A stretch of DNA of 64,000 nt, from assembly GCF_003334335.1 (NCBI RefSeq), contig NZ_QOWQ01000029.1. One strand, given 5' to 3'. The position numbers were made by a program. Shown piece after piece: positions 29,267-32,200 of this stretch. Source of the stretch: Escherichia coli. GTDB taxonomy: Bacteria; Pseudomonadota; Gammaproteobacteria; Enterobacterales; Enterobacteriaceae. Position 1 is the stretch's first letter; every line of letters begins with the position of its first letter.

Positions 29267-32200
29267 TTATTGTGATCAAAAGCAACAAATTAGTAACATT
29301 TAACGTAGGGTATTAAGGCAAAGTGAGACAGGAAATGAATAACTAAAGCAACAGGTTAGGGGGAGTTAACATTAGAGAACAGATTATCTGGTCGATAAAA
29401 AACAGTAAATGGCTTCACTGCAAAATGACCGTTAGTAAACTAAACATATTATCTGCCCCGTTTTATCGGGGCAGATATAACATTAAATTATAAATAGAGA
29501 TAGTTCGGCGGTTCTCCTGTTTTCCCTAAAAGAAGAGCGCTACGCCCAGGAATATTGATATTTAGAGTTCCGCCTCTAAGCGTAAATACTTTACCAGGGG
29601 GGATAATTTTTCGGGTATTATTAATAATAATGTTAACGCTATTACTCCCCATGTTTTTGTATATTCCAGGTTGCAATTTGTTAGGCCAGGTACCTTCAAC
29701 TTCTTCGTTTCCTTTATTTATTATAACTAGTCCATCATGAGGAGAGTGATTAATGTTCACAGAATCCCCACGACTAAAGGCCAGAACGTTTTTAGTTGCA
29801 GATACACCCTCAAATGCGCTCCATATTCCTGCTTTATCTATATATAATGCGTGGAATTCATTGTAGAGCTGCTGATAGGTAGAGCAACCTTTATTAAGCT
29901 ACGCCTCACCGCCGACACGCGTGGACCCATCATAATTTTTAATTTCAGTCGTTGATTTTAATACTTGGCCATCCCAGTAAACTAAAGGCCTGCTGAACGG
30001 CAGAGCGGCTATATATGCCATTGCTAATTGTTCATCTTGTTGATGGTTAAATAGAAAGTCATTGAAAAGATTACCATTGTTAGGAAAATCGTGGTTAATG
30101 TTAATCAATATCCGTCTTTCTGATGGGATACTTGAGATTGTGGAACCCGGTTTTGATGCAAGGGTTTGAAGATCTCCACCAAATGAAAAGGCTTTTATCG
30201 TTTTCATGAGCAATGAAAAATCAATGGCGCTTAAATCATCTCTTTCATAAAGCAGTGATGACATTTGTTGTTCATCCAACTGACAAGTTACCAGATATTC
30301 CATGTAATTCATAACGGCTTTTTTATGATATTTTGGGTTAAATAAGTTAGTATTGTGTAACCGCTCATTATAATTTTTAAGCGGTGGGGTTATTGATCTT
30401 TCTATTTGTTCATGTTTTGAGTGTTTTGCCGCATCATAACGTAAACCTCGTACGCCATATTTTCGCATTTCACGAACGTATTGATTTTGCAACATAATAA
30501 CCTGGTCACTTTTGGGTGTTGTTTTAGGCATTCCATTTAAACGCTTTTCTTTTAATGCATGGAGGTTTTCCCATTCATCCTTAGAGATGTTATCTTTACT
30601 TGCTTCGAAGTCTTTTGCAGTGAGATGTATATCTTCTGGATGGATTTGTTTACGTTCTTTTGTTACTGGATCTTTAATGAATGGAATCAAAACCTGACCT
30701 TGCTAATAGCCAGGGATACCACCTTCTATATCTTTACTGATCTTCGCTCGTATATCAGCAGAGGGATAATCCAGGTCATTTTTACCACTACCCCCAATTC
30801 CCATAAAGTTAAAGGTATAATCAGGAATGATATCGATACCAAATTTTTTAGCATCTTTAACCAATGCAATAAAATCCTGCAAATCTCCCATTGGATTATG
30901 GATGGTACAAAGATCTTCGGGTTGATAAGCATGAAACCAGTAACCCTTTTCTTCTTCGGGAGTTTCTGGTCCGTCGGCGCGGAAAGTTGTCACTGGAGGG
31001 ATTTGTATATACCCATAATGGCAACGTGCAAATTCAGACATATTTTCTCTGATCTGCTGGTAGGTGGCATTAAAAGCATGAAGAATCGCTTCGCCAGGTT
31101 TTTTGGGGGTGATGATTTCACATTGTGATTTCTGAACAGCAGTAAGAGATTTACGCTCAAGTGTTTGCCGTAGATGTTCTAGATTGATTAATATTTTAAA
31201 TGTTTCTTGCTGTCCGGAAGGTGACGTCACGTTAATATTATATACATCGGCTGCCAGCTCATAGTCAGGAATGTTAATAGCATATGCAACATATTTATCT
31301 TTTGGGGAAGGTTTGTCAGATATAATGTGGGTGAAATGTTCAGCACGACCATACTGATAAACACCGCTGTTATCACCTCTTTTAATCATTGTATCTCGTT
31401 GATAAACCTATGTTTTTCTTTCTCCTATCCTGTCTGGCGCTGTAATGCTACGCTGTGCTGCTTTATTCAACTCTCGGTAAGTTGTATCTGGAGAAAGGGA
31501 AATTTTATAATCGTTTTTTAACAGATCATTAATAACTTTTTCTGCGTGAAAAGTTGATATAATTTCTCTGTCTTTTAATCCTTGAGGGTAAACTCCACAA
31601 GAATTAATAATATTTGTTATACAGTTTAGATATTCTAATGTATTTAATTTGGAATTTAGATCCCCGTCAGTAATGTTCCATGATAACAATGTGGGGTTGT
31701 CGATAGGTAAATTTCTGGGTCCTGGTTTTATAGAAAACATAATAAAGTTCCTCTAATGGTAGAGTAATATGATGTATACGGAAACATAAAAATGTTTAAT
31801 TGTTGTGAAAGTAATTGCAAACAGATGTCCTACTTTTATCCAATATTTATATGGAAAAGGATAATGCTTAAATCTGTTTTATTAATTATCGATGTGGTCT
31901 GGAGAGGCAACTGTCAAAAATCGCTCATACGAAACTAATGATTAGCAGAATAAGATCTATGAAAGAATATATTGCTATACGAAGTTTATTTTTATGGAGT
32001 GAAAAGTAACAGATATCATAATGATGCGAAAACTCTTCAGCTAATGTAATAAAGTTATATTATTAGATACAAAATCATTACAAAGTATCATTGAATCGAT
32101 GATAACTATAGATAGTGCTAATTATTAACATTTGCTTGTTGACTGCGAGTATCGACTTTGCGAATGGAGGCGGTGTCGGGTTTTATGTCGCGTGTAATCA

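Follow-up and report, generated by a model that had tools for sequence, protein, structure and literature searches.

A stretch of 64,000 nucleotides (nt) from Escherichia coli (contig NZ_QOWQ01000029.1 of assembly GCF_003334335.1), hereafter called the window, carries on its minus strand, at positions 29488–31740, an alpha-amylase-family gene that is interrupted by three amber (TAG) codons. The locus is the known E. coli pseudogene ygaQ, which is already annotated as b4462 in strain MG1655. Comparison of its alleles showed that it is very probably a young unitary pseudogene that was lost recently and in steps by ordinary gene decay, and not a gene subject to regulated readthrough. It is a clear case of stepwise decay accompanied by recombination, fit for a textbook, and holds little new biology. 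What is added to the known pseudogene is the origin of the stops as Trp>amber transitions, their stepwise gain, their frequencies in the population, the survival of constrained intact alleles, and the identity of the N-terminal stump.

Reverse-complement translation of the minus strand from 31740 to 29488 gave a single frame of 751 codons, with TAG at codons 111, 346 and 614. The four open reading frames (ORFs) into which the frame is divided, of 110, 228, 263 and 90 amino acids (aa), have ends spaced by 705, 804 and 411 nt, all divisible by three, and therefore share a common frame. The remaining five frames of the same stretch contained 39–86 stops, and ≈52 stops in 750 codons would be expected from the composition. 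Against this expectation only three internal stops were observed, and the near-open frame is therefore the remnant of a real gene. When aligned with eight intact alleles of other E. coli strains, each 2,253 nt long, the sequence required no gaps, and no frameshift was revealed. An original prediction for this DNA had placed a single frame of ≈750 codons here, with three TAG codons, a natural TAA terminator and no frameshifts. The translation and the spacing of the ORF ends confirmed the frame, the four stop codons were found exactly where they had been predicted (Table 1), and the gap-free alignment showed that the orthologous segments are not out of frame. Both predicted motifs, GLRYDAAKH (codons 432–440) and NINHD (codons 547–551), were present.

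In MG1655, the identical 2,253-nt extent is annotated as pseudogene ygaQ b4462. Compared to MG1655, the window had 2 nt differences over 2,104 compared nt of ygaQ and another 2 within the 2.9 kb upstream of it, or four over ≈5 kb in all, and therefore derives from a close K-12 relative and not from MG1655 itself. In the other stop-carrying strains examined, the Prokaryotic Genome Annotation Pipeline (PGAP) had tagged the locus “internal stop”. The b4462 locus was earlier divided into four ORFs; PMC4725251 gives the names of two, ygaQ and ygaR.

The ancestral state of the three codons was read from 20 full-length ygaQ alleles taken at even intervals from the list of hits. Eight of these (L004, L005, L009, L010, L015, L017, L018 and L019) were intact ORFs of 750 aa, all of exactly the same length. 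TAG614 occurred alone in four alleles (L007, L008, L012 and L014), with a 1-bp insertion in L011 and with TAG346 in L002, and the triple amber was found in the window, L001 and L006. L013 had TAG111 alone, and the two O157-type alleles (L003 and L016) had none of the three ambers, but had a CAG>TAG change at codon 413 instead. Wherever an amber was missing, the codon was TGG, and the orthologue in Escherichia albertii also encodes Trp at all three positions. The three stops are therefore Trp>amber G>A transitions, and the question of which sense codon intact homologues have at these positions, posed along with the original prediction, received the same answer, TGG (Trp), at each of them.

The frequencies of the ambers were determined by exact 35-mer searches in 5,426 complete E. 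coli genomes. TAG614 was present in 2,392 genomes, TAG346 in 1,075 and TAG111 in 983, while the O157 amber was found in 304 and the main TGG614 haplotype in 1,375. Taken together with the nested alleles, these frequencies suggest that the stops arose in the order 614, 346, 111, and TAG614, being the most widespread, is probably the earliest of the three. The table of single-nucleotide polymorphisms in ygaQ was mosaic. In L013, the 5′ 560 nt were K-12-like and included TAG111, and the 3′ part was divergent. The 862 sequences of one protein cluster extend from M118 to A613; this extent implies that TAG614 and TGG346 are combined in one allele with a lesion upstream of M118, most simply TAG111. 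Both the mosaic L013 and this cluster therefore indicate that recombination has reshuffled the amber combinations. The possibility that TAG111 had arisen anew in L013 was rejected in favor of recombination, given the K-12-like 5′ haplotype. Overall, the window differed from the nearest intact alleles by 27–29 nt, and from the consensus by about 18 derived changes, 12 of which were G:C>A:T.

The ratio of nonsynonymous to synonymous substitution rates (dN/dS) among the intact alleles was 0.08–0.24 (about 0.1) overall and dropped to 0.06 in the catalytic part. These low values indicate purifying selection, and the ancestor was therefore a real gene. About one-fifth to one-fourth of the ygaQ-carrying strains still have an intact allele under such selection. 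Collinear intact alleles of the same length, stops that are derived, and intact copies under purifying selection together identify the interrupted gene as a unitary pseudogene. In the most likely course of events, three independent G>A transitions would each have converted a Trp TGG codon to amber in the E. coli lineage to which K-12 belongs, first at codon 614, then at 346 and then at 111, with the combinations being shuffled by recombination. The stop at codon 614 cuts off the C-terminal β-sandwich domain; this domain would have been lost with the first event, and the later stops are most readily taken as neutral decay. A full-length product would not be expected in wild-type cells.

The original prediction had left two options, either recent inactivation or conditional expression by amber suppression or readthrough. 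The former is upheld by the ancestral TGG codons, the nested alleles and the small number of differences from intact alleles, whereas the latter is not, since the stops are unconserved. It had also considered the lack of frameshifts to be odd in a pseudogene, a premise that fails at such low divergence. The ratio of indels to substitutions is ≈1:10 to 1:20, and fewer than one to two indels would be expected. With only 27 differences and 18 derived changes, the finding of zero indels is unremarkable. In the literature on the base rates of nonsense versus frameshift pseudogenes, we found definitions and no numbers.

Several points weigh against the reading as stepwise decay. That enzymatic function was lost after the first truncation is something we infer. 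Relaxation of selection after the stops was not demonstrable: in a McDonald–Kreitman-like contrast, private changes numbered 23 nonsynonymous to 26 synonymous plus four stops in the stop-carrying alleles, compared to 47 to 61 in the intact alleles, a difference that was not significant by Fisher’s test, with few changes available and recombination as a confounding factor. When the window was paired with its closest intact alleles, dN/dS was 0.31–0.36, which is elevated, but indecisive. Finally, the probability that three stops out of three would be TGG>TAG is only ≈4e-4 under simple mutation models, although this pattern was noticed post hoc and no mechanism for it was found.

Conditional expression would mean that the three UAG codons are decoded through natural readthrough or by amber-suppressor transfer RNAs (tRNAs), so that full-length protein is sometimes made. 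We consider this extremely improbable. It is true that every internal stop is an amber and that the frame is preserved along with the catalytic residues and the terminator, but the stops are derived from TGG, neither the intact E. coli alleles nor E. albertii have them, and they are polymorphic and stepwise rather than conserved among orthologues. In other lineages, ygaQ is destroyed by frameshifts, insertion sequence (IS) elements and deletions. Basal readthrough of UAG does not exceed ≈1e-2 per codon, or ≈1e-6 for three in series. Moreover, tRNA-Trp misreads UGA, restoring Trp, and leakiness under selection would therefore favor TGG>TGA. At codon 614, Trp is kept in 31 of 40 homologues, so its substitution is likely to be damaging. 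No suppressor tRNA or recoding signal was found within the window, which holds only tRNA-Arg(ACG), tRNA-Ile(CAU) and transfer-messenger RNA.

A search of complete E. coli genomes for suppressor alleles likewise gave no general support for suppression. A supE-type glnV allele (anticodon CTA) was found in 156 of the 5,426 genomes and the 40 records listed all appear to be laboratory K-12 strains or to derive from them (such as C600, DH5alpha, DH1 and J53). As the listed supE-type genomes appear to be derived from K-12, which carries the triple-amber allele, a low level of W111Q/W346Q/W614Q product may be possible in such strains. If this is true, the common supE44 cloning strains, unlike MG1655, may make a little full-length triple W>Q YgaQ, and some caution would be advisable when working with supE or release factor 1 (RF1)-deficient strains, in which the ygaQ frame could be read through. 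The supE44-type glnV was also seen in records labelled “K-12 MG1655” (CP010438-40) and in “mouse gut” O16:H48 isolates, which suggests that these records descend from supE laboratory strains and are not true MG1655 or wild isolates.

Independent lesions were found in other lineages. In the O157 lineage (L003 and L016, O157:H7), Q413 was changed from CAG to TAG within a CCAGG Dcm site, an independent inactivation of ygaQ that is explained by the deamination hotspot at Dcm 5-methylcytosine. There was also an insertion of 1 nt at nt 1641 of ygaQ on a TAG614 background; on an amber-free background, 1 nt had been lost from a C6 run and 81 nt had been deleted; mobile-element lesions comprised IS3 and IS1 truncations and an ISKpn26 insertion. 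Such repeated loss raises the possibility that inactivation was adaptive, in that ygaQ was costly or harmful in some niches and both knock-outs and further upstream truncations were selected. At least four primary lesions are independent in ≈24 alleles (W614am, Q413am, the −1 frameshift and the IS1 truncation), and the gene is missing from 22% of genomes. Neutral loss is, however, common for horizontally acquired accessory genes (PMC2275313), and intact alleles are kept by purifying selection in several lineages. The nonsense share of random substitutions in the ygaQ ORF is ≈4.6%, which gives ≈1.2 expected stops in 27 changes; the three that were observed would fit with selection, but the excess is not significant (Poisson P ≈ 0.12). 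Similarly, the frequency order 614 > 346 > 111 means that the product became shorter with each later stop, from 3′ to 5′, an order that has a chance of about one in three under neutrality. The gene is described as H-NS-silenced, AT-rich and horizontally acquired, with an intragenic promoter (PMC7229825), a description that counts in favor of adaptive loss. On balance, we consider adaptive loss to be unlikely.

The uniform nature of the three stops was considered separately. TAG accounts for ≈29% of the nonsense paths in ygaQ and TGG>TAG for ≈7.6%, and all three stops would be TAG with a probability of ≈0.024. The all-TGG>TAG pattern most likely reflects transition bias plus post hoc selection of a striking case, and is recorded here as unexplained. 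Two specific causes were rejected. A Dcm hotspot does not underlie the three ambers of the window, none of which is at CCWGG, and an alkylation-type G>A signature, which favors G following a 5′ purine, does not fit the sequence context, as the mutated G follows T at all three sites.

A mutational hotspot with a specific context, G>A at the middle G of TGG and especially of TGGC (equivalent to C>T at the 3′ C of CC on the other strand), is very unlikely to be the explanation. Among 13 G>A changes in the window, seven were GG>AG (P = 0.02) and four were at TGG (P = 0.03), but these enrichments are marginal and post hoc, and no such bias was seen in the G>A changes that are absent from the window. 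TGGC was the context in five of the seven G>A events at the middle of TGG in the 20-allele sample, at ygaQ nt 486, 1030, 1037, 1731 and 1841 (window positions 31255, 30711, 30704, 30010 and 29900, respectively); these are small numbers, and nt 1030 is a CCTGG Dcm site. Replication could contribute to such a bias: ygaQ lies on the plus strand at 2.79 Mb of MG1655, where the coding strand is the leading-strand template, and deamination of C on the lagging-strand template would therefore read as G>A on the coding strand, as judged from replication asymmetry. While the O157 amber is at a classical Dcm 5-methylcytosine site, CCAGG, none of the three K-12 sites is CCWGG. Furthermore, in-frame TGG codons (3/9) were not hit significantly more often than out-of-frame TGG (4/32), and there was no sign that any one amber had arisen twice. 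A broader idea, which we hold to be similarly improbable, is that the exclusive Trp>amber pattern is non-random, resulting either from a strand- or context-specific G:C>A:T process on an H-NS-bound, AT-rich island or from repeated selection that silenced a costly GH13-like gene. This idea arises because the three ygaQ ambers are accompanied by a CAG>TAG amber in the neighboring ypjC (see below) and by the O157 amber in ygaQ. Stepwise decay through ordinary transitions remains the preferred reading.

The product of the ygaQ ancestor is predicted to be a divergent, cytoplasmic GH13 (alpha-amylase-family) protein of 750 aa. Pfam matches were obtained to Alpha-amylase_C and, more weakly, to Alpha-amylase, and a family profile matched Bacillus subtilis alpha-amylase with E = 9e-19. 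NCBIfam gave no family assignment, YgaQ scoring far under every amylase cut-off. An alignment of 40 sequences showed R434, D436, E481, H550 and D551 to be invariant; of these, D436, E481 and D551 would correspond to the catalytic nucleophile, acid/base and transition-state stabiliser, respectively. The Glu was placed elsewhere by pairwise hidden Markov model (HMM) alignment, and the assignment of E481 relies on the deeper 40-sequence alignment. The region I motif, DxxxNH, was not matched: conservation extends to D307 and N311, but E. coli has Phe312 in place of the His. Among the homologues, this position is His in 27/40 and Phe in 10/40. The original assignment to GH13 with preserved motifs was thus borne out, apart from the region I His. 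An AlphaFold2 (AF2) model based on the 40-sequence alignment had a predicted local distance difference test (pLDDT) score of 83.5 and a predicted template modeling (pTM) score of 0.87, and Foldseek matched it to alpha-amylases at E = 1e-23, with target-normalised TM-scores of 0.7–0.79. The model has the predicted fold of the family, a (β/α)8 barrel with a domain B and a C-terminal β-sandwich.

The only paper found on the YgaQ protein used a fragment of 110 aa (PMC4725251). This 110-aa ASKA “YgaQ” was described as a 5′-flap single-stranded DNA nuclease that confers mitomycin C resistance on over-expression (PMC4725251). The 110-aa “YgaQ” (31408–31740, minus strand) is what the amber at Trp111 leaves of the 750-aa GH13-like protein, an N-terminal stump, and this part of YgaQ falls outside the amylase fold. 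The most likely reason for the “homology to alpha-amylases” reported for it in the paper is that the 110-aa fragment matched full-length database alleles.

The ygaQ stretch was matched in 4,249 of the 5,426 complete genomes, over at least 80% of its length in 3,362, and 1,177 genomes (≈22%) had no match to the locus. The gene is located between glaH (csiD) and the tRNA-Ile(CAU) gene ileY. Its GC content is 37%, compared to 49.6% for the whole window and ≈58% for the neighboring gab operon, and the GC content drops from ≈58% to 34–40% in the stretch that holds ygaQ. All close relatives of YgaQ that were found belong to E. coli or E. albertii, the search of genome contigs returning E. albertii only; other full-length homologues were few and had 32–35% identity. 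The E. albertii orthologue (L020, 5866–8109) has 60% protein identity and lies in the order tRNA, ygaQ, and ORFs sized like glaH, lhgO and gabD. An identity of 60% is far under the usual level for genes common to the sister species E. coli and E. albertii, and suggests either fast evolution or separate acquisitions at one tRNA-linked site.

More distant homologues (L021, 4916–7390; L026, 5529–7694; L027, 420–2816) were found in surroundings that resemble virulence islands. Among their neighbors are InvH, a FidL-like protein, a giant intimin/invasin, EspA, an SseC-type translocon protein and transposases. These virulence-like neighbors, the lack of a signal peptide and the unexplained N-terminal region of 210 aa raise the possibility that proteins of the YgaQ family are secreted or directed at the host.

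The features of the locus are collected in Table 1. A promoter scan at ygaQ yielded fewer sites than shuffled sequence and is therefore uninformative.

Table 1. Coordinates of ygaQ and associated features in the window.
Feature	Position	Strand	Remarks
ygaQ pseudogene (b4462 in MG1655)	29488..31740	-	751-codon frame collinear with intact 750-aa alleles
AGAGGA Shine-Dalgarno-like motif	31754-31749	-	read directly from the sequence
ATG start codon	31738..31740	-	read directly from the sequence
Amber codon 111	31408..31410	-	from TGG (Trp); in N-terminal extension; rarest of the three, 983/5,426 genomes
Amber codon 346	30703..30705	-	from TGG (Trp); in GH13 catalytic domain, upstream of nucleophile Asp436; 1,075 genomes
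Asp436 GAT codon	30433..30435	-	RYDAAKH, GH13 region II nucleophile; invariant in 40 homologues
Glu481 GAA codon	30298..30300	-	putative general acid/base; invariant in 40 homologues
Asp551 GAT codon	30088..30090	-	NHD, GH13 region IV; invariant along with His550
Amber codon 614	29899..29901	-	from TGG (Trp, kept in 31/40 homologues); commonest of the three, 2,392 genomes
Natural TAA terminator	29488..29490	-	
Terminator-like GC-rich hairpin	29450..29477	-	11 bp stem; begins 11 nt past the TAA
tRNA-Ile(CAU) ileY	32300..32375	+	edge of low-GC island with ygaQ; not a suppressor tRNA

Additional observations were made on the surrounding sequence. An antisense ORF of 189 aa extends across ygaQ on the plus strand (30559–31128), and in all likelihood results from the high AT content. 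The neighboring ypjC/ypjB (33126–34499, plus strand) is one ypjCB gene interrupted by a single CAG>TAG amber at codon 161 (33606–33608). Compared to the intact 484-aa ypjCB of strain KE47 (L025), this copy has gaps totalling ≈105 nt. The ypjC amber is a further G:C>A:T stop in the same low-GC island, and is at a non-Dcm site.

The copy in the window shares its locus, its extent and all three ambers with ygaQ of MG1655, and there is no essential difference between the two. At the level of the protein, YgaQ has a predicted A/B/C domain architecture in common with B. subtilis AmyE (1BAG, 1UA7), Pseudoalteromonas haloplanktis AHA (1AQH, 8CQG) and animal alpha-amylases, as well as the Arg and Asp of region II, the Glu of region III and the His-Asp pair of region IV. 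It differs from these enzymes in its low identity (15–19%), an extra N-terminal region of ≈210 aa, the lack of a signal peptide, and the presence of Phe312. With pyrrolysine decoding or supE-dependent amber alleles, ygaQ has in common only the occurrence of in-frame UAG in an otherwise open frame. Unlike in programmed UAG decoding, the UAGs of ygaQ are unconserved, no dedicated tRNA or recoding signal accompanies them, and the orthologues encode Trp. A further comparison is with the amber hotspots of lacI, which Coulondre and Miller reportedly described in 1978 at Dcm sites (CCAGG > CTAGG). The O157 Q413am mutation resembles these hotspots, being a CAG>TAG change inside CCAGG, whereas the three ambers in the window arose from TGG in the non-Dcm contexts CATGGG, ATTGGC and CGTGGC.

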